This document shows, one piece after another, positions 3,742 to 33,100 of a DNA stretch of 64,000 bases (position 1 is the first letter of the stretch; each line of letters begins with the position of its first letter). The notes below the pieces were generated by a model. It made no database searches, was not told the DNA's origin, and was given only the letters and a program-made list of their open reading frames with translations. The stretch spans positions 662,574 to 726,573 of the forward strand of contig CAWCJM010000003.1 in the NCBI GenBank assembly GCA_963795875.1, in the 5' to 3' direction. Origin of the DNA: an uncultured Acidobacteriaceae bacterium. Lineage in GTDB: Bacteria > Acidobacteriota > Terriglobia > Terriglobales > Acidobacteriaceae. The position numbers and the translations under genes are program-made.

Positions 3742-3798
3742 ACCTAAACGGACCGCTGAGCCTGCCGAAGCTACCTAAACCACCGAGCTTACCTAAAC
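3742..3798 (+). repeat. Subterminal direct repeats 'acctaaac' x3, about 100-150 nt inside the left TIR
   Basis: 'acctaaac' at 3742-3749, 3773-3780 and 3791-3798, each followed by a (c/g/t)(a/g)(c)cg context. A related 'gaaactaaag' lies at 3821-3830. Confidence 0.5.
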
Positions 3799-3851
3799 TA
3801 CCGAAACCGCCGTCTTTGCCGAAACTAAAGACGCCTCCCGAGCTACGGCCT

Positions 3852-4284: not shown

Positions 4285-4313
4285 TCAAGTTCTGAACCAT
4301 GAATTGTACGAGA

Positions 4314-7530: not shown

Positions 7531-7988
7531 GACGACGCCTCCGGGAGGGCGTAGATTTCATCCAGCGTTAACGCACCCGCTTGGGCCAGGGAACTCAGAA
7601 GATCGGGGTCGGTGATCAGCGCGTGTCCACCAATCGACTTTCCTTCGAACTTCCCTAAGCCTTCAACATCACCCGTTCGGAGGTACTTGCCGACCGCCGC
7701 CATGTATTTACCCAGCTCCGACGCTTGCTTCGAACCGCGTACCGTGACTGGAGCGTTTCCAACGGCCGTCGGTACCAGCATGTCGCGCTTTCGGCGATCC
7801 CCTCTCGTGCTCTTTCCGTGCTCCCGTAATTCGGTCGAAAGGTATCTCCGGACAGTGCGAGGATCGATTTCTTCCTCTCGTGCCGCGACGGTTAAGCTCG
7901 AACCCGTCCGGCGCATCCGCGCGAGTACATGAAGTGCGCGGTTGTACGTTTTCTGCCTTTTTCCACGTCGTTTTTTACCGTTTCGCAT
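7527..7988 (-). CDS. Hypothetical DNA-binding (HTH) protein, first gene of the polB operon
   Basis: Basic N-terminus followed by ALHVLARMRRTGSSLTVAAREEEIDPRTVRRYL (HTH-like). Stop overlaps the HNH start. Confidence 0.55.
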   Translation of the reverse strand: MRNGKKRRGKRQKTYNRALHVLARMRRTGSSLTVAAREEEIDPRTVRRYLSTELREHGKSTRGDRRKRDMLVPTAVGNAPVTVRGSKQASELGKYMAAVGKYLRTGDVEGLGKFEGKSIGGHALITDPDLLSSLAQAGALTLDEIYALPEASS

Positions 7989-8122
7989 TCCTCAGCTCCC
8001 TTCTGCTACTGCTTGATGGAAGCTAACATGTGCTATATCATTGGTTTACGTCGACTCGCTGAGGACGTTTAAGCTTAATACGGCAATAATGATGTTTTAA
8101 GTATTATTAACTTGGCAAGTGC
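7989..8122. promoter_or_regulatory. AT-rich divergent intergenic region between the polB operon (-) and the cas1 operon (+)
   Basis: Locally very AT-rich: ...ttaagcttaatacggcaataatgatgttttaagtattattaacttggcaagtg. It sits between two divergently transcribed gene sets. No specific promoter boxes are asserted. Confidence 0.45.
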
Positions 8123-9124
8123 ATGGAACTCGATGACTTTAATTTGGCGGAAAAAATCTTGTCGGCGCTCGACGAGCACAAGCCCCTACGAGGTTATCCG
8201 TCACAAATTGACAAAGATCGGTTGTGGAACATGCGCCAGCACCTTCGTTTTTTTTTAGAGACCACTTGGGACGAGGTTGGCTGCCGGTTTCAAACTTTCC
8301 GAAAGATGGCGGATCTGCGAGCTGTTATGAAGCCCTGGGAAAAACGAATAGAGCAGGAAGAGCATGTTGTAAGAGCCTTACTCTGGAATGGCGAACGGCC
8401 AGCTACATCGAGATCGCTGTATCGCCAGCGCAAGCAGCTTGGCAAGTTGCGTGACCGTTACATGAGCGCGATAGAGTTGATCGATCAGTGTCGGGATTTC
8501 CTGGAGCGCTTCATGGTCATTCCCGCTCAACACCTATCCCTTGCAGAACAGGACGTCATCCGCGACGCGATTTGCGAAAGAGCACGAAAGCTGGCTCATG
8601 CTGGAGAGGAGTGCATTGCTCTGAGGGAACAAGAAAAAGAGTTGGAAATATTGATAAAAGACGGCGAGGCTTACTTTGCTCGAAATGAACTGTTCGATTT
8701 CTACCGTAGTAAGCGCTACAGACTGACACCCCTCGACGTTGCGAATGCTCTTGCGGGCCTTCCATTCATAGGTTGGAGACGTTCTGCTGACAGATGTCGA
8801 AAATGGAAGGAAGAGCCAGAAGGTATAAGCTTCGGGATTTTTCGCATTCTTCTGCGAATTGTAAGAGCCAATGTACGCCGATCGGATTTGATGAGAGATG
8901 CGGATAAGTTCATCGAAGCCAAGAGCCCTATAGGGAACAAATTTGCTCTCGCTGATTTGCGCGAAAATCGTTATTACCTTCGAAGGTCGATAGCCGCCGT
9001 GTTGGAGCAAGGAACGAAGCGGGTTGACCTAACGGCTGCGATTTCCAGAGAGTACTGGAAACGCAAGTCACACCCCACTGCTGTAGACCGTGCATTTGCA
9101 GAGGAAGAAAGAATCGTAAAGTGA
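8123..9124 (+). CDS. 333-aa hypothetical protein, no recognisable domain, translationally coupled to cas1
   Basis: Long intact ORF. Its TGA (9122-9124) overlaps the GTG (9121-9123) of the cas1 ORF. Confidence 0.6.
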   Translation: MELDDFNLAEKILSALDEHKPLRGYPSQIDKDRLWNMRQHLRFFLETTWDEVGCRFQTFRKMADLRAVMKPWEKRIEQEEHVVRALLWNGERPATSRSLYRQRKQLGKLRDRYMSAIELIDQCRDFLERFMVIPAQHLSLAEQDVIRDAICERARKLAHAGEECIALREQEKELEILIKDGEAYFARNELFDFYRSKRYRLTPLDVANALAGLPFIGWRRSADRCRKWKEEPEGISFGIFRILLRIVRANVRRSDLMRDADKFIEAKSPIGNKFALADLRENRYYLRRSIAAVLEQGTKRVDLTAAISREYWKRKSHPTAVDRAFAEEERIVK

Positions 9125-10572
9125 TCGCGTTTCCTCAGAATGGAGATCCAATGGCCTCGACTTCGTTTTCTCAAACAAATATTCAGCCTCGACAAGGAGT
9201 AGTCACACTTTTTGGATACGGGACGAGCGTGCGCGTCGATCGAGGACACTTGGTCCTCGAAGATGGAATTGCAAACAATCGTCATCAGGGGCGTTTCCCG
9301 AGAGTTGGACACGGTCTTCGACGGGTTGTCGTCATTGGCGCAGACGGGATGGTTTCGCTCGCTGCTCTCCGTTGGTTAGCGGACCAAGACGCAAGCTTTG
9401 TGATGCTTGATCGGGATGGCTCAATGCTGGCGACAACGGGCCCGGTTCGATCTTGGGATTCCAAACTTCGGCGTTCTCAAAGTCTTTCAATTTAAAATGG
9501 TGCAGGTCTGCGGATCGCGCGGGATTTGATCAGCAAGAAGCTTTCCGGACAAGAACAAGTCTCACGCAACAAGCTTCTGGATTCCTCAACTGCCGACAAA
9601 ATCGCTCGTTACAAATTCGAACTGCCTCATGCTGACTCCATTTTTACAATTCGGTTGATTGAGTCGCAAGCTGCACGCGCCTATTGGTCTGCGTGGAGCA
9701 CGTTGCCAGTGAATTTCCCGAAGAGCGACTTACCACGAGTTCCCGATCATTGGCGCAGCTTTGGAGCACGTGTTTCTCCCCTTACCGGATCGCCTCGACT
9801 TGCCGCCAATCCAGCCAATGCAATACTGAACTATCTTTATTGCGTTCTAGAATCTGAATACCGGTTAGCGGCTACTGCGCTGGGGCTGGACCCTGGTTTA
9901 GGTGTCCTGCACGTCGATACTCCATCTCGGGACAGTATGGCGTGCGACGTAGTGGAGCCGGTTCGCTCTGCCGTAGATTCGTATGTTCTCGATTGGATCA
10001 CCCGACAGCCATTAAAGCGTGAATGGTTTTTCGAACAGCGGGACGGCAATTGTCGATTGATGGCTCCGTTCGCCGTCCGTCTGTCTGAAACAGCGACGAC
10101 TTGGAGACGAGCGGTCGCTCCGGTGGCGGAATGGATAATGAAACAATTCTGGTCGACGACGCAGAAGCGAACGCAGACTCCCCAAGCACCTACGCACTTG
10201 ACTCAGGCACACCGACGCGCAGCTAAGGGTACTTCATCTGAAACAAGCATGCGCGCAGCACAGCAGAGCGATAACCTCTGTCCAGGATGTGGAAAAACAA
10301 TTCGGAGTAACAGCAGGACCTGTGTCCAATGCGGCATCCCGACCTCGACGAAGAACATGTTGAGTGCAGCCCGAGTCGGACGTTTGACGGCAAATGGACC
10401 CGAGGCCCAAGCTAAGCGAGCGACAAAAGCTCGGACGAACACACTAGCAAAACATTCGTGGAAGGATTCCGATCAACCAGCTTGGCTAACACCTGAATTG
10501 TTAGCGGGAACAATCCAGCCTTTGCTGGCTAGCGTTTCGATGTCAGCCATCCGATTGACACTTGGAGTTTGA
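9121..10572 (+). CDS. cas1: Cas1-family integrase (casposase-like) with C-terminal Zn-ribbon and HTH. Disrupted by one frameshift near 9490 and two in-frame stops (10570, 10579); homology continues to about 10650.
   Basis: N-terminal domain: GHLVLEDG...LRRVVVIGADGMVSLAALRWLADQDASFVMLDRDGS. Catalytic domain: ANPANAILNYLYCVLESEYRLAATALGLDPGLGVLHVDTPSRDSMACDVVEPVRSAVDSYVLDWI (E, H and D/E residues present). Zn-ribbon CPGCGKTIRSNSRTCVQCG. After GV-TGA-NW-TAA the same frame reads GSKIRQGYRPHPRHWQNCAALVG. Confidence 0.85.
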
Positions 10573-10675
10573 AACTGGTAAGGAAGCAAGATTCGACAAG
10601 GGTATCGCCCACACCCGAGGCACTGGCAGAACTGCGCTGCACTTGTTGGGAACGCTTCTGGTGCAGTCCCAGCTT

Positions 10676-11600
10676 CTAATCGCGGTTTCCCGATTTCACA
10701 ATCCAGGTCCAAACGACTACGACGGTGGAGGCAGCGACAATAAGTTCCGCCCAAGTGAAGGAAACGTAATCGCCAAACACCCCGACCGGAGGCACGCCTG
10801 GCTCCACATTGCGCAGGGCCGGCAAGCCAAAGATGAGAGACACCGACAATGAGAGCGGCAACAAGGTGGATTGCCCCTTGACTGCCGTCGCCGCAGAACC
10901 ATGGCGAGCAGGCTCAGCGCCAGGCACATCATAGTGAGCATCACGACAATCGTGACACCTATCACATTGTCGGCTCGTCTTATGGACAGGTCGATTCCGG
11001 TGACTTCGTGGCTCTGGGCCCTTGAAATTTGCCCACGGAACTTGACTCCCGGGATGGACGCTGTCAGATCAATAGAAATGGGAACGTGATCTTGCTCCAA
11101 CGCTGCCGGGTCGATCGCGAGATTGGGGATCGAGGGCGCGGTCAGTGCATGTGATGAGGGCGGAGGAGCCGATCAAGTAGTCCGGACGCAGTTAGCAGGA
11201 AGCCCAAGGTCGTCTGATGACGGTCAAAGGGGTATCGATTCGTATCTCCGTCAAGGGAAAATTCCGCCTCAAAAGGTCTCATAATTTCTCCGACGGGAAA
11301 ATCGATCTCCTGAGACCCCTGAGAAGCGTTGAGAAACAACTTCAAATTACGTGCCGGAGTTACTCCATCCTTTGTAAGATTTCCGACTGGCCGAAGGCGT
11401 ATCTGTACTCTGAGTTCTGAACGGTTCAGATTCGCTTCCATCACTCTGATACTCACACCGACACGGTCTCCGTCTTTCGCCTCCCGAAGGCGCAAAGAGC
11501 GCCTTTCGCTTTCATGTAGATTGAAAATCAGGATCGCAACGTAAAGAAAACCAACTAACGGCATGATCAAGATTCGAAATCTTGACCCTGGAATGTGCAT
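10676..11600 (-). CDS. Membrane protein (DUF4436-like, from memory), split by about 2 frameshifts
   Basis: ORFs 11142-11600, 10717-11100 and 10676-10927 join into one protein. N-terminal TM ILIMPLVGFLYVAILIF, then ...NRYPFDRHQTTLGFLL, and C-terminal TM segments. Confidence 0.45.
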
Positions 11601-11924
11601 ATTGAACCCCGCGCGGGCTCAGGCGGCTATGGTTGGGCATCCTATGAAGTTCAGGGATTGTTTCCTACTGGCACAAGTGACAGGGGCGAGTCTTCGGAAA
11701 AACATCTATTGATCTGGCCATGCCTCCCCACGCAGACGATTTCCGCGGACGACTGGCAATTCTGTCAGTTGTCGGGTTCGACAGCGCGCGATATTTTCGC
11801 GCACAAGCGGAATCATCTTTCGGTGATGGGGAAAAACAATGAGCGCCGACGACAGAGCGGTCAAGCATGATTCACAAACAAACAAATCAAAGGCCCAAAC
11901 CGGCGCGCCGGCAGGGCCGCGTCC

Positions 11925-14253
11925 ATGGACCGTACCGTGCTGCCCGTTCCCGAGCCTCAGTATCCGCCGATCACCGAGCTTGATGTGCACAATGCGCAAG
12001 CCCCGCCACGGTTCCAGGTGAAAGCGCCGAAAGGCGCGCCCAACGTGGTGGTCATCCTTCTCGACAACTTCGGCTTCGGCGATGGATCGACGTTCGGGGG
12101 ACCAATCCAGATGCCGACGCTGGACCGATTAGCCGAGACCGGGCTGCGCTACAACAATTTCAAAGTCCCTCCGTTGTGTTCGCCCAGCCGCGTGGCTTGC
12201 CTTACCGGCCGCAATAGCCATAGCGCAAACTTCGGCGTGATCTCGGAAATTGCCACTGCTTTTCCGGGATACACCGCGATGCGTCCCGCCAGCGTTACGA
12301 TGCTGCCCGAGATCTTGCGGCTGAACGGCTATAACACCGCCATGTTCGGCAAATGTCACGAGCTGGGCCCTTGGGAAGCCAGCGTTGTCGGACCGTTCGA
12401 CCGCTGGCCGATGAATAGCGGGTTTGAGAGGTTCTACGGCTTCATGGCTGGCGAGGCTGACCTGTTTCATCCGGTCATTTACGACAACATGAACAGGGTG
12501 GATATGCATCCCGAGCCCCGGTTACTACGCCAGCTCTGACATCACAGACAAGGCCATCGAATGGGTGCGATCCCAGCATTCACTGGTCCCCGACAAGCCA
12601 TTTTTCGTCTACTACTCCGCCATTGGCACTCACGGCCCGTTCCAAGTGCCCGAGAACGTGGCGCGACCGGTACAAGGGCAAGTTTGACCGCGGATGGGAC
12701 CAAGTGCGAAAGGAAACGCTGGCCCGCCAACTCGAAATGGGAGTCGTGCCGCCGGGCACGGAGCTCGCCCCCAAGCCGCCTGGGATTCAGGAATGGGAGG
12801 ACTTGACGGCCGATGAGAAAAAGGTCTTTGCCAGGTACATGGAAATCTATGCCGCCTTTGGCGAGGTGACCGACTACGAAATCGGGCGGTTCTGGACGCG
12901 ATCGAGAACCTGGACCTGATGGATAACACGCTGATCTTCTACATTACCGGCGACAATGGCTCGGTTTTCCAGGGCGGCCCCATCGGCGCGTTCAATGAGC
13001 TATCTGTGTTCAACGGACTGCCAGAACCGCTTGAGGTGGCGCTGAAAAACCTCGACAAGTTCGGCGGACCCCAATCCCACATTTTGTATCCCAATGGTTG
13101 GGCTTTCGCCGGCGCCACGCCTTTTGCCTGGGGCCACCAGGTGGCCTCCTACGGCGGCATCTGCCAACCAATTGTGATCCATTGGCCGAAAGGCATCAAG
13201 GAGAAGGGCGGCCTGCGCACGCAGTGGTACCACATGATTGACATCGTCCCAACGGTGTTGGAGGCAGTTGGGGTGCCCCAGCCAGATGTCGTCTATGGCG
13301 TCAAGCAGAAACCTATCGAAGGCGTGAGCATGCTCGATACTCTTAATAACGCCCAGGCCAAGTCGCGCCACACCACGCAATACTTCGAGATGGCAGGCAA
13401 CCGTGGCATCTACCAGGACGGCTGGTTCGCCACCACGGTGCACCGTCCGCCATGGGAGGCTAAGGCGCGGGCTACATTTGAAAACGACAAGTGGGAGCTT
13501 TACGACGTGGAGAAAGATTTCAGTTGCGCGCATGACCTTGCCGCCAAGTATCCCGACAAGCTTGAAAAGCTGAAAAAAGTTTTCCTGGAGGAGGCCGTAA
13601 AGTACAACGTGCTTCCGCTCGACGACCGCGCCTGGGAGCGCTTCAACGCCGCCTTGGCGGGCCGTCCGGATCTGATGGAAGGTCGCACCGAGATGACGGT
13701 CTATGAAGGAATGAAAGGAATACCCGAGAATGGGTTCATCAACGTCAAGAACCGCTCCTTTGTGCTTGCGGCCGATATCGAAATTCCTAAGGCGGGCGCT
13801 GAAGGCGTGGTCATCGCCCAGGGCGGGGAAATGGGCGGCTGGAGTCTCTATGTGAAGGACGGCGCACCCAGGTTTGCCTACAACTTTCTCGGTCGCGAGA
13901 CCTACAAGATCGTTGGCCCCGCTCCCCTCCCGGCCGGGAAGGTGATACTCCGCTTCGAGTTTGCCTACGATGGTGGTAGGCCCGGCGCGGGAGGCAACGG
14001 TTCGCTTTTCGTCAACGGCGAAAAGGTCGCCACGGGGCGGATCGAGCACACTCATCCGAACGCGTTTGGCGCGGAAACAACGGACGTCGGCGAAAACCTC
14101 TATACCGCCGTCAGCGACGACTACAAGGTGGGCGATAACAAGTTCACCGGCAAGATTAACAAGGTGACCATCCAGGTCGGCAAATCCAACCTCAGCGAGG
14201 AGGCACAGAATGCTATCCAAGAAATGCGTGGAAGGAGAGCGATGGCCGGCTAA
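11925..14253 (+). CDS. Arylsulfatase (formylglycine-dependent), at least 3 apparent frameshifts
   Basis: APNVVVILLDNFGFGD, sulfatase CxPxR motif PLCSPSRVACLTGR, and a downstream large C-terminal domain. Pieces 11925-12539, about 12540-12690, 12623-12919 and 12919-14253. Confidence 0.85.
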
Positions 14254-14264
14254 TTGTACCCGTG

Positions 14265-14295
14265 AGGAACGCTTCGTCCGCGGGCTAGCGTTCCT
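14265..14295 (+). terminator. Perfect 9-bp hairpin just downstream of the sulfatase
   Basis: aggaacgct (14265-14273), 13-nt loop, agcgttcct (14287-14295). No clear T-run. Confidence 0.35.
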
Positions 14296-14386
14296 GTGAG
14301 AGTGCCGCTAGCGTTTACGGCAAGCGGGTGTCTTGAGTACGGCTATCGCTGGGAAAGTCTGTTCGACATGTTTGGAGGACAGAAAC

Positions 14387-14696
14387 ATGAAATATGCATT
14401 GATTACAGGGTTGATGTTGTTAGCGACATCGCCTTACGGGAGCGCCCAACAAAGCGAGTATCCGATGATGGAGAAGGTCGCTCAAAAAGTCATCGAGAAA
14501 TACCAGAAGTCCAGTTGCGAAGATCTGAAAGCCGAGAAAGCGCAACCGCCAAAAGCGCCAAACCCCCAGCAGGCCGCGATGAAGCAGAAAGCTGTCGCAG
14601 CCCTGAAGAACGAATCCGAAGATGCGCGAGCAGTTCCTTAACAAAATCGCAGGGCCCATTGCCAACAAAATGTTCGAATGCGGCGTGGTTCCCTGA
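14387..14696 (+). CDS. Small secreted protein, one frameshift near 14620
   Basis: Signal peptide MKYALITGLMLLATSPYGSAQQ. The C-terminus in a shifted frame reads MREQFLNKIAGPIANKMFECGVVP*. Confidence 0.45.
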
Positions 14697-14861
14697 TCAC
14701 CGAATTACGGCGTGAACAGGAACATCGCAAGAACCTGAAGAACTGCCAAAAACAAACGTCAAGTTTCTTGATAAAACCAGCGTTCTCTAAGCTCGCGGCA
14801 CATAAACAAAGAAGCAATGACAAGACTTGCGTGGAACACACTATCCTCAAAGGAGAACTCT

Positions 14862-15290
14862 ATGAGGCAAAACCATCTCACGATCGACTTCCCGATTAAA
14901 TCGCCTTCCAACGTGAAGGCGCTGACCGAAGAGCTGCCCTCGTTGATGCCCGATTTCGCGAAAACGCAGGATAGCCTCGGTACCGTGCATTTCTCCCGTT
15001 TCGCGGTCCACGGCGACGAGAAGCTTCTCTTCCTTGCGGACGTTGACGGCGAGGTAAATAAATATTGAACGACTCGTGGAGAATGCAGGAGCCGTTTTGA
15101 AGCCATCTTCAAACACTGGAAAACCCTCCGGTTACGCCCGTGGCGAGTAACTCAGCGGCGGCCATTGAAATGGCTGAAGAATCATAACCACCGGCCTATC
15201 ACGCCGTATAGCGCTTTCGAGGACACTTCGTTAAGGACATCAGGGCGGCCGCGTGCGGCGGGCTTTACGGGCAACACCCACAGAGCACTT
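14862..15290 (+). pseudogene. Small conserved protein usually found next to DyP-like peroxidases (family from memory); multiple frameshifts
   Basis: MRQNHLTIDFPIKSPSNVKALTEELPSLMPDFAKTQDSLGTVHFSRFAVHGDEKLLFLADVDGEVNKY, then shifted frames IERLVENAGAV..., ...NPPVTPVASNSAAAIE..., ...LKNHNHRPITPYSAFEDTS. Confidence 0.35.
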
Positions 15291-15319
15291 GGCTGATCTG
15301 CGCCCGCCATTCAAGTTCA

Positions 15320-17290
15320 GGTATTTAAAGCCTTTATCTTGGAGAAGGTGGTCTTGAAGGCTATAGAGGGCAAGGGTAGGAAAGGTGGATTTATTAGGGA
15401 CGCTGCACTACGACTGCTCCGTGCCTTTCAAGCGCCGCTTTTGGAATTATCACAATCTACGACGGTTCTTTCGCGCGATACATCCAAAGATTCGCAGATC
15501 AACTCGGCACGCGTTCAATGTCTGGTTTCAATTTATTAGTGGGGCGCCTCCGAGCCAGTAGCGAAGGCCCGCCCAGGCGTTCCTTACATGGGCAGATGAA
15601 AACGACCGCCCGGCCATCGGGTTTTGCAGCGCCTATCAAGCCCCTCGGGGTTGGATTCTGGGGCAGCCTGGCCGATCGCAAGACACAGGACAGCGCTGCA
15701 TAGCAGTTGTCACATTGGTCACCAAACCAGGACCAATAGGGGAGCCGTGTGACGACGGGGAACACACCACATACGGCACCGGCGAAGGACGGCGTTGGGT
15801 ACCGGCCGTTCTTGGTCGCGGGCGGCACGAAGCCCCAGAGACGGATGGCCACTGGGAGGCAAGGGAAAGTCGGCGCTCGCCCTCGCGGACATCGGCTTTA
15901 TTCTCCGCGCTTACAAGAATGCCGACGCTGCGACACTTCTTATTGACGGTAGTAAATCCTGCACAGGCGCGCCGGCAACTTGGACGGCTGGTATGCGGCG
16001 ACGAATCTGACGTCCCGCAAATCACTACTGCCGAGGATTGGCACGTGGGGTTCGGGCCCGGACCGGGAGACGATCCGACGGATGTACCCGCGTCGCAAGC
16101 CCGATCTGCCTCAACATCGGTATCACGTGGCCCGGACTGGTTGCGCTGGAGATAAAAGAACGTGTCCCAACGCTATCCTTCAAGTCATTTGGTGCATTCA
16201 TCGAAGGAGCCGCGCAACGAGCCGAGTTAGTCGGGGACACGGGGGCAGACTGGCCGGAACTCGATTGGCGGTTTTGGAAAAGGACACGACCACGTGATGG
16301 TGACGCTCACCATGGCCGGAAGCGGATCGACTACACCGACAGATTGTGTCGCTGGTTCGCCGAAGGAAATGCCTTTCAAGAATGACACCGAGCGGGATGG
16401 CGTTAATGGAGATGCAAAATGGCCAACCCGTTTTTACCGGCGAAGATCCGCTTTGGTAATACCGACGGCGTGGGTTCCGCCCACAATTCGCGGCGGACCG
16501 GAAATTTATCATCCTGATCATCAGCAGCCGTGCGGCGTTGCTTTTGGTTTTACGGGAAGACGTCAATTACATGTTTACCGGAACCGCGAACACTTGGTCT
16601 AAACGGCAGCTTTGCAGTTTTCAAGAAAGCTCGAGACTGATGTCATTCCATTGAAAGGTTTCTGCAGTCGAACAAGAACAAAATAGATCCTGAACTGCTC
16701 GCCGCAAAGATGTGCGGGCGATGGCGCAACGGTGTTCCTCTTGCCTTGTCGCCGGACACGGATCACCCACGGGAGGTATTTAGCCCCCGCAGTTGAACAA
16801 TTTCGAATACGTGAATCCCGACGGGTCGGGGCAATCCGAAGGGAATTCGCTGTCCTGTTGGAGCTCACGGTAGGCACACTCAATCCCGCGAGGTCAGCGA
16901 GTTGCCAGGGGCTACCCGGAGGTAGCAATAATTCTCACCGGCTGATTCGTCGCGGTCTGCCTTACGGACCGACCTATGCATCCCAAGCAACCTTTCGCGG
17001 TCACTGACGTCGGGTGCTTCTTCTTATTAACTCTAATATCGAAAACCAATATGAGTTTGTACTGCGACGTTGGGTAAATGACAGCGAATTCGCTGGAGCC
17101 GTCAGGCTGAACCCAAAGTCCAAAGATCCCCTAATGGGCACCCAGGATCCAGCGGAAAGCATTTTCGTGATACCGCAGGCAAATGGGGAGCCGCCGGTCG
17201 AGGTGACAGGTCTGTCAAGCTTCGCTACCACCAAAGCCGCTGCCTACGTTTTTCTGCCGAGCATCACAGCTATCAAATTGATCGCTAACT
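15320..17290 (+). pseudogene. DyP-type peroxidase-like gene, heavily fragmented (many frame changes and stops); boundaries approximate
   Basis: Fragments CLNIGITWPGLVALEIKERVPTLSFKSFGAFIEGAAQRAELVGDTG and the C-terminal block LLLINSNIENQYEFVLRRWVNDSEFAGAVRLNPKSKDPLMG...AAAYVFLPSITAIKLIA, typical of the DyP family C-terminus. Confidence 0.5.
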
Positions 17291-17373
17291 CGGAAAACGA
17301 GATTAAGAGAGAGAAAAGAGTTAAAAGAGAAGTGGACTTAAAAACGAAGAACCGAGAAGGGATGGAGAACTCA

Positions 17374-17715
17374 ATGAAAAGAATGTCGCAGAAAGCATTG
17401 CTGGTCATAACCTTGCTATCGTTGGCGATTAGCCTAGGGCTGCCCCCCAGAGCGGCATCACAGAATCAAGGAACAGCTAATCAAGACAAAGCTAAGGCTT
17501 GTAACGCTCAAGCCGACAGTAAGAGTCTAGAGGAAGATGAACGCAAGACGTTCGTGCAGGATTGCCTCAGCAAAGCCGGTGTTCAGCAGCCCAGCGAGAT
17601 GAGTCAGAAGGACAAGATGAATGCCTGCAAGGAGATCGCTGACAAGAAGAACCTCACGGGAAGCGACCGCAAGTCGTTCATCAAGGACTGCATGAATAAA
17701 GCTAACCCAAAATAA
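17374..17715 (+). CDS. PsiF-repeat secreted protein
   Basis: Signal peptide MKRMSQKALLVITLLSLAISLG, then two repeats of the type K..CN/K..A..K.L.G..RK.F..DC (KAKACNAQADSKSLEEDERKTFVQDCL; KMNACKEIADKKNLTGSDRKSFIKDCM). Confidence 0.65.
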   Translation: MKRMSQKALLVITLLSLAISLGLPPRAASQNQGTANQDKAKACNAQADSKSLEEDERKTFVQDCLSKAGVQQPSEMSQKDKMNACKEIADKKNLTGSDRKSFIKDCMNKANPK

Positions 17716-18057
17716 CAGGCGCAGTTCTATGGCAATCCCGTATGCCCTCCCGGAACGGCATCTTGGGCGTCCGGAGTGCCTGTAAATGTGGCGAGTACAT
17801 TGGACGTTCGCCGCCTTTATTCCGCAGGGTTGAAGCCTTGTCACAACAGTTATCGTTCGGGACCAACTGTGAGAAAAATACCACTTCCATAACCTTAAGT
17901 TTACCCCTACTTGCGAAATGAGCCTAGGGCGAGGAATGGCACAATAACGGCTTACTCCCGGAGGATGTAATGTAATCGCGAATCAAACTTCTGTATTCTT
18001 TGTACTGATCGTCATTGGATTCATGTCGCCACTTTTGGCCAACAAAAGGGGCAGTGG

Positions 18058-18981
18058 GTGCCGGGACAGTTTGGTCTCAATGCGGGTGTGATTCCAGACC
18101 CCGGAGTAACATATGCCAACTTGGCAGTGAATTACTCCGCGGGTCAATTGAATGACTCCAATGGGAACAACATTCTTCAGAATGTTACGGGGAATTACTC
18201 CTTCTGGGTAGACGAAAACATCTTTTATTATGTCCCGAACCACAAGGTGCTGGGCGGCTATTTCATGCCCTATGTCGCGCTAAGTTATGCAAACGGGGAG
18301 TTGGTGGCGAATATCACCGGCACGAATCTCAACAGCGGCGGAGGTGGGTCGGGTTTTGCCGACCTGTTTGTCGAGCCGTTGCTTTTTGGCTGGCATTTCG
18401 GCAAACGAGTCGACTTTAATGCCGGATACGGATTCGTTGCTCCAACCGGCCGCTACACTGCGGGAGCGAGCGATAACGTGGGTTCCGGATATTGGGGGAA
18501 CAATATCACGTCAGGCACCACCCTCTATATCACCAAGAACCAGGGGACCACCGCAAACCTTGCCACCAACTGGGAAATCCACGGCCAAAAGAGCGTGGCC
18601 AACGTGCTGAGCGGTCAAAATAGCAAAATCACCCCCGGCCAGGCTTTCACCGCTGAGTGGGGAATTGGCCAGGTTCTTCCCTTGAAGAAGAATATGAGCC
18701 AACTGGCCCAACTTGGATTAGTTGGATATGACCAATGGCAGGTTTCGGCTAACGGCGGCAATTACTTGGTAGCCGGAATACCCGTTGCGGCGAGCAGGGT
18801 ACCGTACTACTCAGTTCACGGAATCGGTTTCCAGGCCAATTACATTCTGCCTGCGAAGAATCTGGTAGCCTTCTTCAAGTACTACGATGAGTATTCAGCG
18901 AAAGCTCGTCCGAAAGGACGCACGATCGTGTTCGGATTTTCATGGACGCTGAAGATTCCGAAATCGACGCCAGCAAAGTAA
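18058..18981 (+). CDS. Outer-membrane beta-barrel channel of the MetA-pathway/phenol-degradation-like family; the N-terminus with signal peptide probably lies upstream, frameshifted
   Basis: Alternating beta-strand pattern, aromatic-rich, with terminal ...TIVFGFSWTLKI. Family assignment is from memory of the Phenol_MetA_deg-like family. Confidence 0.55.
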   Translation: MPGQFGLNAGVIPDPGVTYANLAVNYSAGQLNDSNGNNILQNVTGNYSFWVDENIFYYVPNHKVLGGYFMPYVALSYANGELVANITGTNLNSGGGGSGFADLFVEPLLFGWHFGKRVDFNAGYGFVAPTGRYTAGASDNVGSGYWGNNITSGTTLYITKNQGTTANLATNWEIHGQKSVANVLSGQNSKITPGQAFTAEWGIGQVLPLKKNMSQLAQLGLVGYDQWQVSANGGNYLVAGIPVAASRVPYYSVHGIGFQANYILPAKNLVAFFKYYDEYSAKARPKGRTIVFGFSWTLKIPKSTPAK

Positions 18982-19096
18982 GCATCTTCGCTTGGACAGG
19001 CGCGCCGTCGGTTAATTGAAGCTCTGCAGTGTAAGGAACGTGGTGAAGCGTCCTCGGCTTGCAATCGATTCCTTTATTTCGCAGCCCAAGACGGGG

Positions 19097-19127
19097 GTGC
19101 ATATTGATCCCGTCCTGTTCTCACCCC
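19097..19127 (-). repeat. Right terminal inverted repeat (arm A') matching 3614-3645
   Basis: 'gtgcatattgatcccgtcctgttctcacccc' is the reverse complement of the left TIR except for 1 substitution and a 1-nt indel. Confidence 0.7.
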
Positions 19128-19141
19128 GTCAAACGGGGAGA
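19128..19141 (+). repeat. 14-nt direct repeat copy 2 'gtcaaacggggaga'
   Basis: Identical to 3600-3613 and 21592-21605. Lies immediately outside arm A' and immediately before arm B. Confidence 0.7.
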
Positions 19142-19180
19142 GGGAGAAGGGAAGGAAGGGTTCAAATCGAGCCCCCCTCT
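19142..19180 (+). repeat. Inverted-repeat arm B (pairs with 21553-21591)
   Basis: 'gggagaagggaaggaagggttcaaatcgagcccccctct' versus the reverse complement of 21553-21591, 'gggagaagggaaagagacccccaaatcgcgcccccctat'. 30 of 39 positions identical, with identical 12-nt outer ends. Confidence 0.6.
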
Positions 19181-19183
19181 GCG

Positions 19184-19273
19184 AAAAAAAAACAAAAAAG
19201 GGGGAGGGAAGGAAAGAGTAAAAAAGGAGGGGCAGAAAAGGATGGGGTGGAAAAGGAAAAGGAAGGACAAAGA
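19184..19273 (+). repeat. About 90-nt polypurine (GA-rich) low-complexity tract
   Basis: aaaaaaaaacaaaaaagggggagggaaggaaagagtaaaaaaggaggggcagaaaaggatggggtggaaaaggaaaaggaaggacaaaga, with only about 6 pyrimidines. Confidence 0.8.
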
Positions 19274-19291
19274 TGTGTCGATTTTCATTTT

Positions 19292-19330
19292 GGGGGCGTG
19301 GTGCACGGGTGGGCGTGCGGGGTTGGGGGG
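19292..19330 (+). other. G-quadruplex-type motif (5 runs of at least 3 G)
   Basis: ggggg cgtggtgcac ggg t ggg cgtgc gggg tt gggggg. Confidence 0.5.
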
Positions 19331-19463
19331 CAGGCAATGGCGACGTGATGGTATTGTCAAGTCATGGGCAGCAACATATTGATGTCATATCGCGCGAGCA
19401 TAGAAGACCGAAAATGGAAGGCGAGCCCCTCGGCAAACTCGAATCCTTATGCCGGCTATTCGT

Positions 19464-20458
19464 CTATTTGGATTTTCGTGGACGCGAAAACGGACGCAAT
19501 TCCTCTGGATGCTCGCGAAGGTAGGCAAGCAGGTGCTGTTTTTTTTCCTTTCCTCTCCCTTGAGCCATGTTGAGTCCATCCTCGTCGGTCGAAAGAAGTT
19601 GCGGAAAACACGTTTGGACACGGTCATAGATGGAGCGCCAAGTTTTCTTGACGGCAAAAAGTGATATCCCAATGTGGTCACTGATCTCCTCGTCCGTTCC
19701 ACCCGGCGCGATAGCCGCCCGCAACAGGCGTTGCTCGCTCAAACTAAACCCTATTTGCGGCCGGTCGCTGATGAAGAGGGAGCCGACCCAAGATCCTGGA
19801 TGAGCCAACGCCAGTTCACGCGTGACCCCAAAGTCTCGCGGCTCATCTGAGAAAGTCTGTTGATCGACGGCGGGAAAACTCGCGCTGTAGATTCCCGTGT
19901 TGCGGTCGAAGAAAAATCCACCGGCCTGGGGGGCATTGGATAACATTTGAGGAGAGTCCGCCTCGGCGAATATCTCTTTGAGGTGAAACCCACGAAAAGT
20001 TGTACGAATGCGCGCGTTACTTCCGCCGCGACCTCCGGACGGGCAGCTTCCTCTGGCGGGCAAGTGTCGTGCCAAACCACAAGGGTCAGCCCGGCGCCAG
20101 AATTCCCATCTCGAACTTCGGCTGCAGAAAGCAGCGGTGACTTCCCATTGACGAGTCGTTTGACCAACTCCGGCGCAATCCAGAGTGACGGCGTTCTCTG
20201 AATGTCGCGCAGAAAATCATCGTAAACAAAAACCGCCATGCCAATCCCAATAAGGCGGGCGGTCCCGGCGTGAGTTTCCTCAAATAGATTAACGGTCGTG
20301 TAGTCGTCGCGTAAAACACGCCTGATTGCAATTGGAACTTGCTCGATGAGGGTTCCGTATCGCGGACCAAGAATGGGATTCCGGGCAAGATGCGCGACAC
20401 AGGTGCTGATATCCCTCGGCTGCGCAGGTCGGTGCGTTACGCTCACGGAAAGCCCCAA
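19464..20458 (-). CDS. LuxR-family (HTH) transcriptional regulator, one frameshift near 20000-20075
   Basis: C-terminal LSEQRLLRAAIAPGGTDEEISDHIGISLFAVKKTWRSIYDRV is a LuxR/GerE-type HTH. ORFs 19751-20458 and 19464-20075 overlap in different frames. Confidence 0.65.
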
Positions 20459-20668
20459 AAAATTATAGTTGCAAAATCTTTCAGCCCTCTTTTAGAGACT
20501 TGCATATAGCACATTTTTCTTTAGACTGCCAACCTAGTTCGTTCCATGAAGCAACTTCAGGGATCTCGAACTCAACCAGTGGAACTGATTCACTTAGCAA
20601 CCGTAAGATTTTCGCGTCACACAAACGGGCCTCAGACTCGCTGGACAAGAAGTTTCTCAGGAGGACGT

Positions 20669-21142
20669 ATGAAACACAATATTGCGAGAACAACGGTCGT
20701 ACAAATCGCATTGGCCATGGCTGTGGTGAGTATCGCGCCATCAGCCTACGCTCAACATTGCTCATTCGCCGGGGCAGCTGGGAGTTATGGGTTCTCCGAC
20801 AGTGGAACAGTTGTTGGTGTCGGGCCGAGAGCGGCTGTGGGCTTACTGACCTTTAACGCGGCTGGGCAGGTCCAAGGCCCGGTGACGGCGAGCTTGGCCG
20901 GTGGCATCACGCAGACATCGCTCTTTGGGACGTATACGGTGAATCCTGACTGCAGTGGTACAGCCAGCTTTGCCGAGCTCGATCAGAACGGAAACCCCGT
21001 GCTTACGGCAACTGTCGTTGTCGTATGGGACGACAACATGCGCGAGGCCCGATTCATCTTCACATCGGTTGTTCTGGCCAATGGCACACCCCTTGCCACC
21101 GCGGTTAATGGCGAGGCAAAAAAGCTAATGCACTCACATTGA
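20669..21142 (+). CDS. Secreted hypothetical protein
   Basis: Signal peptide MKHNIARTTVVQIALAMAVVSIAPSAYAQ. About 157 aa, beta-rich. Confidence 0.5.
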   Translation: MKHNIARTTVVQIALAMAVVSIAPSAYAQHCSFAGAAGSYGFSDSGTVVGVGPRAAVGLLTFNAAGQVQGPVTASLAGGITQTSLFGTYTVNPDCSGTASFAELDQNGNPVLTATVVVVWDDNMREARFIFTSVVLANGTPLATAVNGEAKKLMHSH

Positions 21143-21166
21143 TCCCCGGCGTTACTAACTCACCCA

Positions 21167-21454
21167 TTGTGTGGTCAGCGACCTCGTCAAACACAAATGG
21201 GCTGCTGCGCGAAGGTTACCGAGAGTCGGCTAAAGAAGGAGCGTTGGCTGACTCTGGACATCAGTCAGACCGCAGTTTCTGATCCGCTGGGGGAAAACTG
21301 GAACTTCCACTGTGACGTTACGAAAACAGTCCTTTGTGATGGTACCGATCTGATTAACGTTGGTCTGCTTTGGTACCCAGGCGGCATGGCAACCATGCCG
21401 ACTCTAGGTGGAAACAACAGTCAGGCATGGGGCGCGAACAATTTAGTCAAGTAG
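21167..21454 (+). pseudogene. Fragment of a HAF-family extracellular repeat protein
   Basis: ...VGLLWYPGGMATMPTLGGNNSQAWGANNLVK*, with VVGVAET continuing after the stop. This resembles the LGTLGG..S.A.GIN..GQVVG repeat; only about 1 repeat is present. Confidence 0.35.
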
Positions 21455-21552
21455 TAGGTGTCGCCGAGACTACAATCAAGATGTGAATTGTGTAGCGCCT
21501 CAAGTCCTGGGCCTAGTCAGAGACCAGTCCCAGTCCAAACATGATCACATGG

Positions 21553-21591
21553 ATAGGGGGGCGCGATTTGGGGGTCTCTTTCCCTTCTCCC
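21553..21591 (-). repeat. Inverted-repeat arm B' (pairs with 19142-19180)
   Basis: See arm B. Lies immediately before the third copy of the 14-mer. Confidence 0.6.
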
Positions 21592-21605
21592 GTCAAACGG
21601 GGAGA
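21592..21605 (+). repeat. 14-nt direct repeat copy 3 'gtcaaacggggaga'
   Basis: Identical to copies at 3600 and 19128. Confidence 0.7.
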
Positions 21606-21637
21606 GGGGTGGAAGGAAGGGACGGCAAAACTGCCAC
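21606..21637 (+). repeat. TIR-like arm C (about 70% similar to left TIR A), no partner found in the window
   Basis: 'ggggtggaaggaagggacggcaaaactgccac' versus A 'ggggtgagaacaggacgggatggaatatgcac'. The first 6 nt are identical, as are the 7 nt preceding them. Confidence 0.45.
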
Positions 21638-21909
21638 ACCCCCTCCGACCGCCACAGAGCTTCCGTTTTTGACTTGACCAAGGCCTCGCGACGCCGTGCG
21701 CAAGAAGAACAAACGAGCAAACCTGAAAAGGACACTAAACCGTGCCTCAATGGTCGAGTCCAAAAGAACAAGATCCGATCAAGATCAATGACGGCGACAG
21801 ATGCTTTCAATTTCATCTCTCGTTATGATCCACTCTTCTCGCGGTAGCGCGAGCTCCGACTGCACCTGATCGAGAACCCGATGTCCATTTTCAATAAGTC
21901 GGTCCGCCA

Positions 21910-22371
21910 ATGCCTTCAGCGTTTCGGCATTTGCCTTCAAAATCTCGGAAGCGTGAGGCAAGAAGTCTTGCATCGTGTCAGTATCACGGTGCCTCGCCTC
22001 TCTTTCTCTACACCAAGCATCCCGAGGCCAAGTCTCTAGCGCCTGACGGAACTTCCGGCGTATGTGACACTCGCGGATTGTTGCAACGGTCTTCCGTAAT
22101 TGCAGCATCACGTCGATACGTGGGAAAAGAAACCGACCGCCGATGGGAACAAGGCGAGGATTTGAGTCTCGTTGAATTCACGTCGTTCGAATATCAACAA
22201 TCAAAACAAGTGGTTGCTGGAGAAGATATCAAACAAGACATTCTCAAGACCGCAATTCGCAAGCTGGAACGCAGTACAGACATCAGTCATCACACGCTTG
22301 AGAAGATTCCGCGAGGCGAACCAGTTCGTCGCAAGACGTTGGACAAGATAGTGAAGCTGACTCGATACTGA
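21910..22371 (+). CDS. Paralog of the PolB-coupled 158-aa protein (homology from about 21979). Possibly the remnant of a second casposon-like element.
   Basis: QYHG...HPEAKSLAPDGTSGVCDTRGLLQRSSVIAASRRYVGKETDRRWEQGEDLS and C-terminal ISHHTLEKIPRGEPVRRKTLDKIVKL align with HREAKSSAPDGSRCKPDTAGLLKR...IGKETERGWEQSDDVS and LSRHTIVRARRGQPVHARSLQLLKNVV of 4314-4790. Confidence 0.55.
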   Translation: MPSAFRHLPSKSRKREARSLASCQYHGASPLFLYTKHPEAKSLAPDGTSGVCDTRGLLQRSSVIAASRRYVGKETDRRWEQGEDLSLVEFTSFEYQQSKQVVAGEDIKQDILKTAIRKLERSTDISHHTLEKIPRGEPVRRKTLDKIVKLTRY

Positions 22372-30190: not shown

Positions 30191-33100
30191 CTAGAAGAGT
30201 AGTTTGAGAGTGAACTGCGCCGATCGCGGTCCGCCGGGCGCGTACAGTGCACTCTGTCCGCTTCCGCCATTGCCGCCGCCTTCGTCGAGGTTCGCTGTGG
30301 AACACACCTTCCCAAAGTCTGGATTGATCGAGCCGCCCCCATAGGACCATTGATCATCGGGTGCGCACTGCGATCCGGGGAGTCCGAACATCGGGTGGTT
30401 GAAAACGTTGAAATATTCCGCGCGCACGTCGAGCTTGACTCGCTCACTAAAGTTAAAACGGCGACGCAGCGCGATATCGGTCTGGTTGATCGAGTAGGGA
30501 CTGCGCAGCCCGTTCCTGGGAAAGTCTCCCGCCTGCCCGGCCGGTGGTAGCGAAAAAGCAGCCGGATTCAGCGCTTTGCCGCTCGGCTGGCTCCGATCAG
30601 GAATCCAGAAAGATTTCCCCGGTACGATTTCAGCCTGCGTGCTATAGAAGCCGGCTGTGGGCGACAACCGCGCCGACGGTTACATTGATGGGCGGCGCCG
30701 ACCACACGCGCACCAGGCCGTCCACCGCCCAGCCTCTCAGAATGGTGTTGCCAGCGCGGCCCCAGGAAGGTGCGGGCACTTCATACGAGACGGCGGCGCC
30801 AAACGATTGCCTTACGTCGTAGTCGGAGGGCGTCAACGGAGGCAGCACAATGTGCGCTCAGGCTCTGTGCGCGCAGGCCGCTCGCGTCGCTGGAACCCAG
30901 GTCGCTTGACTTCGCGAGATTGTAGGACACGAGCGCCTGCAGGCCGTGCGACATGCGGCGCTGGAACTGAAGCTGAAACGCATTGTAGTGCGAGTACCCG
31001 GCGTTCCGGATTGCGGTGACGGTGACATGGCCGATGGAAGTCATGAGCGCCGGAGGAACGACGGAATCCCCCCGCAGCAGTCGTCTGCCATCGGACCCAA
31101 GATAGGTTGCCGTCAGCGTCTGTTTCGCGCCGAGCTCCCGCTGAGTAGCCGCATTCCACTGGAGGTGTAACTGGAAGTTGCAGGTGCGGATCAAACGCGG
31201 TTGTATAAAGCACGTTCGCGTTGAATGTGGTTGAGAATGGCGGAGGTTGGAACGCCGGCTGGGTGACATCGAAGGGAAGGCTCAGTGTTAATGAATTCGT
31301 CGCGCTGATAAGGAAACCCAACGGTAGCAGATGCCCGGCGTTTCCGTAGCCCAAGTCATAGAAGAGGCCAAAGCCACCTCGCACCACCGTCTTGGCGGTA
31401 ATTTGATACGCGGCTCCAATGCGAGGGGCAAAATTGCCATACCTGGTGTGCCAGAGTGCTCCCGGCACCACGGCGATGGGCTTCGTGTCGAAGAGTCCTT
31501 GCAACACGTAAAGCGGTTGGTTTGCGCTGGTCGAAACCGGCGGGGTATTGATCTCCCAGCGCAACCCATACGTCAGTGTCAAATGATTCTTCACCCTCCA
31601 TGTGTCCTGACGTAAAGAGCGCGTAGTTATTCATCCTCAACAGAAAAAGGGTCGGCCGCACTGAGCAGGATCTCAGCCAGTAGTCCCCGCCACTAAGTCT
31701 GTGTACGCCGGAAAGACTGCATATCCTGTCTCGTTCGATCGCACTGGGGCTCAACCGGCGGTAATCGATGCCGAACTTGAGTTGGTGCACACCGACCGCC
31801 CACGAAAATGTGTCCACAAAATTGAGTTGCCGTTGAGCGTTCGAATAATAAAGTCCCATCCCGAACCTCTTCAGCGGAGAAGAACACCAGAGCTTGTCCC
31901 TTATTCGGGCTATAGGGGGACGCGGGCGGAAATAGCGCAGAGGCGGGCGGAATTTCGCTACCATGAAAGTCTGTTAGGGAGGTGCTATGGCTGCCTGTGT
32001 TTCGGCTCCAGTTTGCCCGGAAGTCGTTCACTTTCGTGGGAGCGATCAGAGTGGTGGCTCCCACTGTGAACGCGTCTGCATTCAAATGGTTATAACCCAA
32101 TTCCTCCAAAAATCGTGTCGCGTCATACGACGGCGCGTGATTATAGCGGGCGAACAGAGTGACCTTGCTCGACAGGTTGTGGTCGACGCGAAGGCTGGTT
32201 GCATTGAGAGAGGAAGGATTGGAGTAGGCTATGGTGAGGTTCGACTGGCATGGATTCTGGATGTTGTCGCAGGTCGGATCAACCACCGGGGCACCCGGGT
32301 CCGGAAGCGGTACGGCTTGCACAATCGGTCGATAGACTGGAGCGACCGCCTCCCGCGCGGAAGCCGTCAGGACTTCTTCTGTGTCCGTCTGCGGCTGCCG
32401 CAGCCGCAACCCTTCGTAAGACAAGAAGAAGAAAGGTCTTGTCTTTGAGGATGGGTCCGCCCAACGTCCCGCCAAAGTCATTCTGCCGCAGCGGCGGCTT
32501 GGGTAACGGGGGGCGGTCAAAATAGTTGCGCGCATCGAAAATATCGTTTCGCAGATAATCAAAAGCACTGCCGTGAAATTGATTGGTGCCGGATTTCGTG
32601 ACGATCGAGATCTGGGCCCCGGGCGTGCGTCCGTACTCAGCTGCATACGACGATGTCTGTATGCGGAACTCCTGCATGGCATCGACGGAAACCAGTCCGT
32701 TCGTCCCACCCTGCGCCGTAAACGCAGGGAGCGCGCCACCCAATGATTGCGCGAGGACGAAGGTTGTCGTGGCAAAGTTGGCACTTACACCATCGACCAT
32801 GAAATAGTTCGAGTCCACGTATTGTCCGTTCGCGCTGAACTGCCCTTGCCCGAGATTCTGCGAGGTAAATATCACCCCCGGGGTCAGTCCGATTAACGAC
32901 TGGAAGCTGCGGCCGTTCAGCGGCATGTTGCTCACGACCCGCTGGTCCACCACGGTACTCACCGCGGCAGAATCGGTCTGCAGCAGCGGCGCAGTTACGG
33001 TAGAGATTTCTGAAACGGAACCGAGGGCTAGCTTGAAATTCTCATTGACCGCGTCCTGCACGTATAGCTGCAGGCTGGGCTGGACGACGGTACGGAATCC

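Follow-up and report, generated by a model that had tools for sequence, protein, structure and literature searches.

A probable tandem array of casposon and casposon-related units at one target beside valS in an uncultured Acidobacteriaceae bacterium

The DNA analyzed here (the window) is a stretch of 64,000 nucleotides from the genome of an uncultured Acidobacteriaceae bacterium (assembly GCA_963795875.1, contig CAWCJM010000003.1, positions 662,574 to 726,573). The gene valS lies near its left end on the minus strand, with its start at position 3458, and on the other side of a short conserved sequence, referred to as the leader, are three identical copies of a 14-nucleotide sequence (14-mer), GTCAAACGGGGAGA, that separate three units designated A, B, and C. 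Casposons are proposed ancestors of the adaptation machinery of CRISPR systems, and unit A carries the genes that characterize them. The window was compared with 62 loci recovered in a genome scan with the window Cas1 fragment, nearly all of them in metagenome-assembled genomes (MAGs) of Acidobacteriota, to which metagenome contigs were added. Related loci and contigs are given below as L numbers.

The 14-mer is present on the plus strand as exact copies at 3600-3613, 19128-19141, and 21592-21605, and no further match to it with up to two mismatches exists in the window. By chance, any one 14-mer would be expected to recur exactly 5e-4 further times in a sequence of 64 kb, and the repeats and the arms that adjoin them are not due to chance. 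Read from the leader, the order is leader, target-site duplication (TSD) copy 1, unit A (15.5 kb, with PolB and Cas1), TSD copy 2, unit B (2,450 bp, without Cas1 or PolB), TSD copy 3, and unit C, of which one arm is present. Copy 1 is leader-proximal and has an arm on its right side only, copy 2 is common to A and B, and copy 3 is common to B and C. Neighboring units are thus separated by a single TSD copy, and all copies share the same orientation, as in a tandem array. The junction between the right arm of A (A'), TSD copy 2, and B recurs in L063, a strain that is approximately 95% identical, and the junction between the right arm of B (B'), TSD copy 3, and C recurs on contigs from further samples (L064, L071, L099/L128, and L127). 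An earlier note on this DNA had described this layout, including the recurrence of the 14-mer at 21592-21605, which is exact and is the third and last copy in the window, and the one-sided arm at copy 1; its coordinates and arms were verified. Judged by casposon genes, A is readily recognizable, C keeps a helix-turn-helix (HTH) gene alone, and B has none.

Element A (3614-19127) is bounded by terminal inverted repeats (TIRs) at 3614-3645 and 19096-19127. Its outer arms (3614-3634 and 19107-19127) are complementary at 21 of 21 positions and, when extended, at approximately 33 of 36 positions with one indel. The A-type TIR, GGGGTGAGAACAGGACGGGA.GGAATATGCACCCC, recurs in many related loci, including L002-L009 and L046. 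The PolB gene (4787-7198, minus strand) matches PF03175 (DNA_pol_B_2) with 35.4 bits (cutoff 25.8, E = 7.8e-9) and has weak matches only in NCBIfam. Cas1 (9121-10572, plus strand) is frameshifted in the window; it matches PF01867 (E = 2.5e-26, with a separate N-terminal fragment) and TIGR00287 (75.9 bits, cutoff 71.7), its PDB matches include the Methanosarcina mazei casposase 6OPM, and a zinc-ribbon match is located at residues 245-276 of the C-terminal fragment. An HTH gene of A is present at 4314-5018 on the minus strand. With Cas1, PolB, TIRs, and an exact 14-bp TSD all present, element A is a casposon.

Several open reading frames (ORFs) of the window are split into two or three pieces, namely valS (607-3458), Cas1 (9121-10572), a sulfatase gene (11925-14253), a gene for a TonB-type receptor (30833-33505), and a regulator-like gene of unit B (19464-20458). 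Because Cas1 (530 amino acids) and the sulfatase (804 amino acids) are called intact on the 95% identical contig L063, these frameshifts are probably read errors, in the form of long-read assembly indels, rather than signs of pseudogenes.

Unit B (19142-21591) is enclosed by a left arm at 19142-19180 (plus strand), which begins with GGGAGAAGGGAA, and a right arm, B', at 21553-21591 (minus strand). The left arm and the reverse complement of B' are identical at 30 of 39 positions, including all of the first 12, which reproduces the inverted repeats reported in the earlier note; for fixed positions the probability of 30 or more matches in 39 is 2.7e-11. Both arms open with GGG directly at the TSD, and they have the block CAAATCG.GCCCCCC in common. 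The best match to B' outside the window is the TIR of a 14.7-kb casposon in L039 (score 17; the highest of 200 shuffles scored 13). At 19181-19270, immediately inward of the left arm, there is a purine-rich tract of low complexity (approximately 90 nucleotides of A/G runs, e.g., AAAAAAAAACAAAAAAGGGGGAGGGAAGGAAAGAG), which is also found in L063.

Three ORFs are encoded within B. ORF 1 is the regulator-like gene (19464-20458, minus strand), which is frameshifted in the window but encodes 327 amino acids on a JGI contig and 258 amino acids as called in L063. ORF 2 (20669-21142, plus strand) encodes 157 amino acids with a signal-peptide-like N-terminus, and ORF 3 (approximately 21197-21454, plus strand) encodes 85 amino acids. 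Searches of Pfam and NCBIfam with all three, including the intact copy from L063, gave no match. The regulator-like protein belongs to a family with 958 matches, some of which are named "CsgD family transcriptional regulator" by JGI. Its nearest non-self homologue is 61% identical, and homologues at 57% to 58% identity (P0003 and P0005) are located in ordinary chromosomal or other mobile contexts, not in casposon arrays. Of the gene content that had been proposed for B (a LuxR regulator, a secreted protein, and a fragment with HAF repeats), the three ORFs and the signal-peptide-like protein are borne out, but the HAF repeat is unsupported and the regulator has no Pfam or NCBIfam backing, the "LuxR" label being derived solely from the JGI names of some homologues.

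In blastn and tblastx comparisons, the interior of B resembles neither A nor any other part of the window nor any of approximately 125 related loci. Because it has neither Cas1 nor PolB and no similarity to casposon loci, B is at most a casposon-derived, non-autonomous unit by its present gene content. The suggestion that B is non-autonomous accordingly holds for its current genes, and B may or may not ever have moved as a small unit. In the manner of MITEs (miniature transposable elements with inverted repeats), B combines TIRs and TSDs with the lack of a transposase gene; the multiple copies that mark such elements were not found in the loci and metagenome contigs searched. No relative holds the B genes at this locus, so B is not ancestral there, which is contrary to the possibility, considered in the earlier note, that the segment with the LuxR and secreted-protein genes was part of the original chromosome.

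The third TSD copy is followed by arm C (21606-21642, plus strand), which is a solo TIR belonging to a separate element family, the C type. It had been described as about 70% similar to the left TIR of A. This applies to a gapped alignment of 21606-21637, with approximately 23 matched positions and six gaps, but not to an ungapped one, in which 15 of 32 positions agree. Arm C aligns with the two perfect TIRs of an element in L105 (score 34 on 38 nucleotides, two mismatches), and it also matches arms in L066 and L018. A Cro/C1 HTH gene of casposon type (21910-22371, plus strand) is situated 270 bp inside arm C and is part of the C remnant. Its product shares 77% identity with that of the gene adjoining the TIR in L105 and 38% with the HTH ORF of element A, has a weak match to PF13443, and has tblastx matches in the corresponding position of most of the 62 loci. 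The alternative that arm C is a mere ancestral flank of the target was rejected, given that a different flank adjoins the empty site in L131 and that C-type arms form a pair of TIRs in L105. What is left of C is one-ended and consists of the TIR and HTH gene of an element.

The target is unoccupied in L131, a close relative that was found through close homologues of the ValRS N-terminus and has a valS gene 91% identical in DNA to that of the window. Because L131 is colinear with window positions 1-3480 and, inverted, with 43616-51572, the window has approximately 40 kb of DNA (from 3600 to about 43600), between the valS promoter and a response-regulator gene, that this contig lacks. The L131 site holds no element: the leader and GTCAAACGGGAACA are followed by approximately 130 nucleotides and then by the end of a response-regulator gene, and there is a single 14-mer and there are no arms. 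The seven variable bases of the 14-mer are GGGAACA in L131 and GGGGAGA in the window, and this agreement at five of seven positions is what derivation of the TSD from the target would predict. An unoccupied site is also present in L133, and L132 has the leader variant of the window on a contig that begins inside the leader. In four relatives with arrays at valS (L005, L008, L016, and L018) the array is followed by a homologue of window positions 43.6-46.9 kb. Scans for tRNA genes and Rfam families found nothing in the window, so the target is not an RNA gene.

The target site has promoter-like features. The leader (3575-3604, minus strand) resembles a sigma-70 promoter of valS, with a -35 box TTGACC at 3604-3599, a spacer of 18 nucleotides, and a -10 box TAAGAT at 3580-3575, and it is the sole promoter-like site in 3300-3800 (shuffled sequences average 0.1). 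The -35 box overlaps the first five bases of TSD copy 1, TTGAC being the reverse complement of the conserved GTCAA. Leaders of this kind are present in L002-L009, L014, L018, L029, L030, L033, L038, L039, L045, L048, L066, L105, L117, and the window (3575-3613). In 21 of 22 leader junctions, which span at least eight independent loci, a -10-like hexamer (TAAGAT, TAAACT, TAGACT, TACACT, or TAATAT) is located 17 to 18 nucleotides from TTGAC. The same arrangement occurs at 13% of 1,965 control GTCAA sites, or 4% at a stricter threshold. In each locus for which upstream sequence is available, a gene in the correct orientation starts 5 to 140 nucleotides downstream of the leader; these genes are valS, thrS, tig, and those for a rhomboid protein, a GAF protein, and a DUF4932/TPR protein. 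The promoter motif already exists in the empty sites of L131 (9906-9945) and L133 (9862-9895). In the window and its relatives one flank (the leader) is conserved and the other is variable. The -35 and -10 boxes suggest that the leader is the valS promoter.

Arrays of the same kind are present in many relatives. In a search of the 62 loci that did not require the motif, every A-type TIR was found to follow GTCAA(A/G)(C/G) and seven variable bases. Each array has its own 14-mer (GTCAA with a variable tail), which is identical within the array and present in two to four copies, and element/TSD/element junctions (22) outnumber array ends (11). The array in L002 has three TSD copies and consists of a leader, a 13.9-kb casposon, and a 1,298-bp unit with a CRP/FNR regulator. 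In L045, also with three copies, the leader-proximal unit is a 2,754-bp unit with TIRs matching at 36 of 36 positions and is followed by a 13.4-kb casposon. L030, L032, and L053 are one contig that carries three Cas1 casposons and four copies of its 14-mer, and L018, which is also at valS, has a casposon followed by an arm of the window C type. Metagenome contig L105 contains a complete Cas1-less element of 3,958 bp with TIRs matching at 36 of 36 positions and GTCAAACGGGGAGA on both sides, next to a different leader and with a clean right flank; it encodes only a DUF3857/transglutaminase/TPR protein and an HTH protein. Small Cas1-less units with TIRs and TSDs therefore occur in other lineages (1,298 bp in L002, 2,754 bp in L045, and 3,958 bp in L105). 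The arms belong to a few types, which share a common plan of GGG, approximately 20 nucleotides, an A-rich block, TGC, and a run of C.

The TIR types are not tightly tied to particular casposases. The Cas1 proteins of L007, which has an A-type TIR, and L008, which has an F-type TIR, are 83% identical, which indicates only a loose link between TIR sequence and casposase clade in this group. Because such similar casposases pair with different TIR types, end recognition seems permissive, and mobilization in trans of units with other arms seems plausible from these comparisons. A tight coupling between TIR type and casposase clade, which would make B an orphan, is ruled out by the same pair. As a separate observation, C-type arms stand beside an identical GTCAAACGGGGAGA at three leaders, those of tig (L105, 2941-6926), thrS (L066/L120), and valS (window positions 21592-21642). 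The seven variable bases of the 14-mer differ between all other arrays, and the search had selected for GTCAAACGGGGAGA.

We consider it very likely, with a probability of roughly 0.88, that a casposase inserted several elements at a single chromosomal target next to the valS promoter, where they now form a tandem array. The target would be a 14-bp site, 5'-GTCAAAC followed by seven further bases (N7), directly beside the conserved leader. A Cas1-family casposase would link a TIR-bounded element through its 3' ends to both target strands, at points 14 bp apart, and gap repair would duplicate the 14-mer. The leader-side copy would restore both the promoter and the target, making the site reusable, and three or more such rounds would give the observed order of leader, TSD, A, TSD, B, TSD, and C. 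The leader-proximal unit would be the newest, with C arriving before B and B before A. Unit B, with its E-type-like TIRs and three cargo ORFs, would be, or would have been, mobile only with a casposase supplied in trans. The integration chemistry in this scheme is adopted from published casposase work and is presumed to apply here. Successive integration into a regenerated target, as the earlier note had proposed, is backed by the arrays in relatives, by arm C as a true element end, by the match of B' to the L039 TIR, and by the empty sites.

Several results weigh against this interpretation or fall short of what it would predict. No partner for arm C (C') and no fourth or degenerate 14-mer was found in 21.7-47 kb by fuzzy matching and local alignment, the best candidates being no better than shuffles; the same search gave the same outcome for the C-type arm in L018. 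No TSD was found at the right border of the 40-kb insert (43.4-43.6 kb). The left arm of B is borderline relative to shuffles, and a profile hidden Markov model (HMM) built from 62 non-window arms scores B weakly (E = 7.7), with A, A', and C as the top three matches in the window; at 0.57 bits per position, this profile is too weak to call B. It detected no additional solo arms in the window. Searches for another copy of B or its cargo were negative in the window, in the approximately 125 related loci, in a metagenome pattern scan beyond the same locus, and at the protein level. TIRs are near-perfect in approximately 15 of 17 leader-proximal units and degenerate in three of five distal units, a gradient with rank that fits the model of leader-proximal insertion (PMC5137440), but the trend is weak. 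Finally, no strain or sample was found with A but without B, or with B but without A. The metagenome scan, for the 14-mer followed by GGGR, returned 62 contigs that were mostly irrelevant (coding matches and an unrelated perfect palindrome) and included no leader/TSD/B or A'/TSD/C junction, and exact-protein look-ups for the B and C genes recovered the same B'/TSD/C arrangement only. Comparison of strains for each segment therefore yielded the empty sites of L131 and L133 but no strain that separates A from B, and the independent insertion of each unit is what the structure implies rather than something observed.

The co-occurrence of A and B leaves room for another arrangement, in which A, TSD, and B form one composite block that is present, absent, or moved together. 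One indication of such a block comes from L063 (ENA ERZ25039465 contig_68935, 17,991 nucleotides), which ends exactly at the last base of B' and whose start is extrapolated to within a few tens of bases of the left end of A, positions 3614-21591 of the window being 17,978 nucleotides; a contig of this kind is what an assembler would produce for a block that is polymorphic in a population. A is also present in every sample with B next to C in which the left side is visible. However, the break may equally well be an assembly effect of the 20-nucleotide identity of TSD copies 1 and 3, including the following GGGGTG, and the left end of contig_68935 is extrapolated. Since the outer arms of the block (A-type on the left and B' on the right) are unrelated and A-type casposons elsewhere adjoin quite different neighbors, we regard a composite block as improbable. 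Still less probable, to the point of being nearly discounted, is an origin unrelated to transposition, in which the 14-mer and arms are a dispersed palindrome family like the repetitive extragenic palindromic (REP) elements, or an intergenic terminator. Hairpins of moderate strength can form at junctions 2 and 3 (-25.8 and -30.3 kcal/mol, with z = -1.7 and -2.1), the window has other, different hairpin repeats, and approximately 12 metagenome contigs of other organisms contain the perfect palindrome CCCTCTCCCC-GTCAAAC-GGGGAGAGGG. Copy 1, by comparison, is not palindromic (z = 0.1), in agreement with the earlier note, and in relatives with other 14-mer tails the junctions are not palindromic although the arms and the architecture are kept. 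There are only three copies in 64 kb, each exactly at an element border; the arms are the TIRs of Cas1-bearing casposons; the empty site is a single 14-mer without arms; and neither junction has a U-tract or a terminator call. The palindromic-repeat and terminator alternatives that the earlier note had kept in view thus find no support at this locus.

Within the tandem array, the origin of B is less certain than its position. The arms of B differ at 9 of 39 positions, whereas the flanking 14-mers match at 14 of 14. Had the arms been identical initially, approximately three changes would be expected in 14 nucleotides, and the probability of none is approximately 0.04; because the 14-mers are unchanged despite the differences in the arms, the arms were probably unequal from the outset and never an exact pair. 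Unequal arms are what the fusion of two related neighbors would give, and it is close to an even bet that B was never mobile as a 2.4-kb unit but is the leftover of one or two full E-type casposons after internal deletion in situ. In the version with two neighbors, the TSD between the fused elements would also have been lost; the array would still be tandem, and B would be non-autonomous by decay. A unit in L016 with two arms of different TIR types (18 of 36 positions) between identical TSDs, the clear truncation in place of the adjoining unit C, and the lack of another B copy in any collection searched are consistent with such a deletion. On the other hand, B contains no relic of a casposon gene even at a tblastx threshold of E <= 0.01, although C keeps its HTH gene. 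Other loci have small units that lack Cas1 but have perfect TIRs and TSDs (L045, where the unit is leader-proximal, and L105), so small units do integrate, and the pairing of 83% identical casposases with different TIR types in L007 and L008 suggests that a unit with unequal ends could be a substrate. That B is a chimeric small unit which integrated as such, a reading that the unequal arms fit equally well, is accordingly quite possible, if somewhat short of an even chance.

The palindrome found in other organisms deserves separate description. The contigs with CCCTCTCCCC-GTCAAAC-GGGGAGAGGG are L067, L068, L076, L078, L082, L085, L090, L094, L095, L110, L114, and L125, where the palindrome is often nested in a longer one (GCCCCTCACC ... 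GGTGAGGGGC) and occurs in other contexts without casposon arms. The GTCAAAC loop that it has in common with the casposon target is probably a coincidence of the search pattern. The window itself has an unrelated hairpin, GTGGGACCGGGTCTCAGACCCGG, with an exact inverted match of 23 nucleotides between 1558-1600 and 47546-47568; in both the window and L133, one copy of this type falls within a part of the valS reading frame that is variable. A second hairpin family is of the CCGAGC(GA/TT)AGCTCGG type. Further hairpin repeats are located at 47437-47471 and 60850-60884 in the window, at 5184-5222 in L131, and at approximately 11850-11895 in L133. This genome has REP-like elements, and they are different from the 14-mer junctions.

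The remaining DNA that is absent from L131 (22372-43615) has a right border without a TSD and may be cargo of C or the product of older, eroded insertions. Beyond A, B, and C, the insert encodes an ADOP-type permease, a TPR/HTH protein, a TonB-type receptor, AcrB, a PAS-LuxR regulator, a spermidine-synthase/MFS fusion, and a SpoIIE phosphatase. The likeness of the locus to a CRISPR array is formal (a leader, repeats, and polar growth). Judged by repeats of 24 to 47 bp, spacers of 26 to 72 bp, and associated processing signals, an actual CRISPR array was rejected, the repeats here being 14 bp and the "spacers" 2.4 to 15.5 kb, with no Rfam matches.

Until now, descriptions of tandem casposons with one shared TSD have been limited to related pairs in Methanosarcina, and the polar growth of arrays at the leader-proximal end has been a prediction from in vitro work. 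The loci compared here indicate that casposon arrays are common in a major soil phylum and that one target accepts units with different ends. They include casposase-less units (B and those of 1.3 to 4 kb in L002, L045, and L105), two of the latter three having perfect ends and duplications. The target is promoter-like, and its -35 box would be regenerated by the duplication. The array would explain a 40-kb strain-specific island beside an essential gene, and the TIR types, the leader, and the 14-mer are concrete substrates for testing end and target recognition by the casposase as well as mobilization in trans. We tentatively propose, as an idea that may well not hold in full, that a large clade of Acidobacteriota casposons targets sigma-70-type housekeeping promoters (valS, thrS, tig, and others), builds polar CRISPR-like arrays, and takes up, besides full casposons of several TIR types, natural Cas1-less mini-casposons of 1.3 to 4 kb in trans, including B. 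If true, natural non-autonomous casposons would be known here for the first time, and the arrays would exemplify in living organisms the leader-repeat logic that has been suggested for how CRISPR arrays arose. A search of the open-access literature yielded no account of natural casposon derivatives that lack Cas1, and none of casposon arrays in Acidobacteriota.

The arrangement itself is already known from tandem casposons of Methanosarcina. The family 2 casposons Met2HT1A3-C1/C2 and Met2HA1B4-C1/C2 are in tandem with one shared 14-bp TSD (Krupovic et al. 2016, PMC4779613). One member of such a pair is often inactivated, solo-TIR remnants exist at the target, and these structures have been read as repeated use of a sequence-specific target (PMC4779613). 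The window resembles them in having units parted by one shared TSD and a solo-TIR remnant. In contrast to the Methanosarcina tandems, the host is bacterial (Acidobacteriota/Terriglobia), different TIR types are mixed in the array, one unit has neither Cas1 nor PolB, and arrays of two to three units are the rule across many MAGs. The target, which in Methanosarcina is a tRNA-Leu gene or the intergenic IR1, is promoter-like and upstream of valS here. The target in Aciduliprofundum boonei comprises a leader-like segment of 18 bp and a TSD segment of 15 bp (Beguin et al. 2016, PMC5137440), and arrays in which each new element enters beside the leader were predicted in the same study. The window target would be bipartite in the same way, with a duplicated segment and an adjacent upstream determinant on one side only. 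The A. boonei leader is the T-psi-C part of a tRNA gene, whereas the leader of the window is promoter-like, with -10 and -35 boxes.

In M. mazei Go1, a mini-casposon integrates in vivo into the TSD of the resident casposon and forms a tandem (PMC10359463). The position of B beside A is similar, being Cas1-less, TIR-bounded DNA in tandem with a casposon; the M. mazei mini-casposon was built in the laboratory, whereas B and the units of L002, L045, and L105 are natural. There is also a likeness to the bacterial family 3 casposons, which include AceAut-C1 and NitAL212-C1 (Krupovic et al. 2014, PMC4046053) and with which the window shares a bacterial host, intergenic insertion, PolB and Cas1 with a zinc-binding module, and a conserved HTH protein. 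An analogy with Tn7, in which elements accumulate at one safe site (attTn7, at glmS), has been drawn for casposons (PMC4779613). As in Tn7, insertion at this locus is site-specific and beside an essential housekeeping gene, and reuse of the site builds a genomic island. The enzymes are unrelated (TnsABC+D versus Cas1), and Tn7 is inserted downstream of glmS, whereas the elements described here are located upstream of valS, at the -35 box of its putative promoter.

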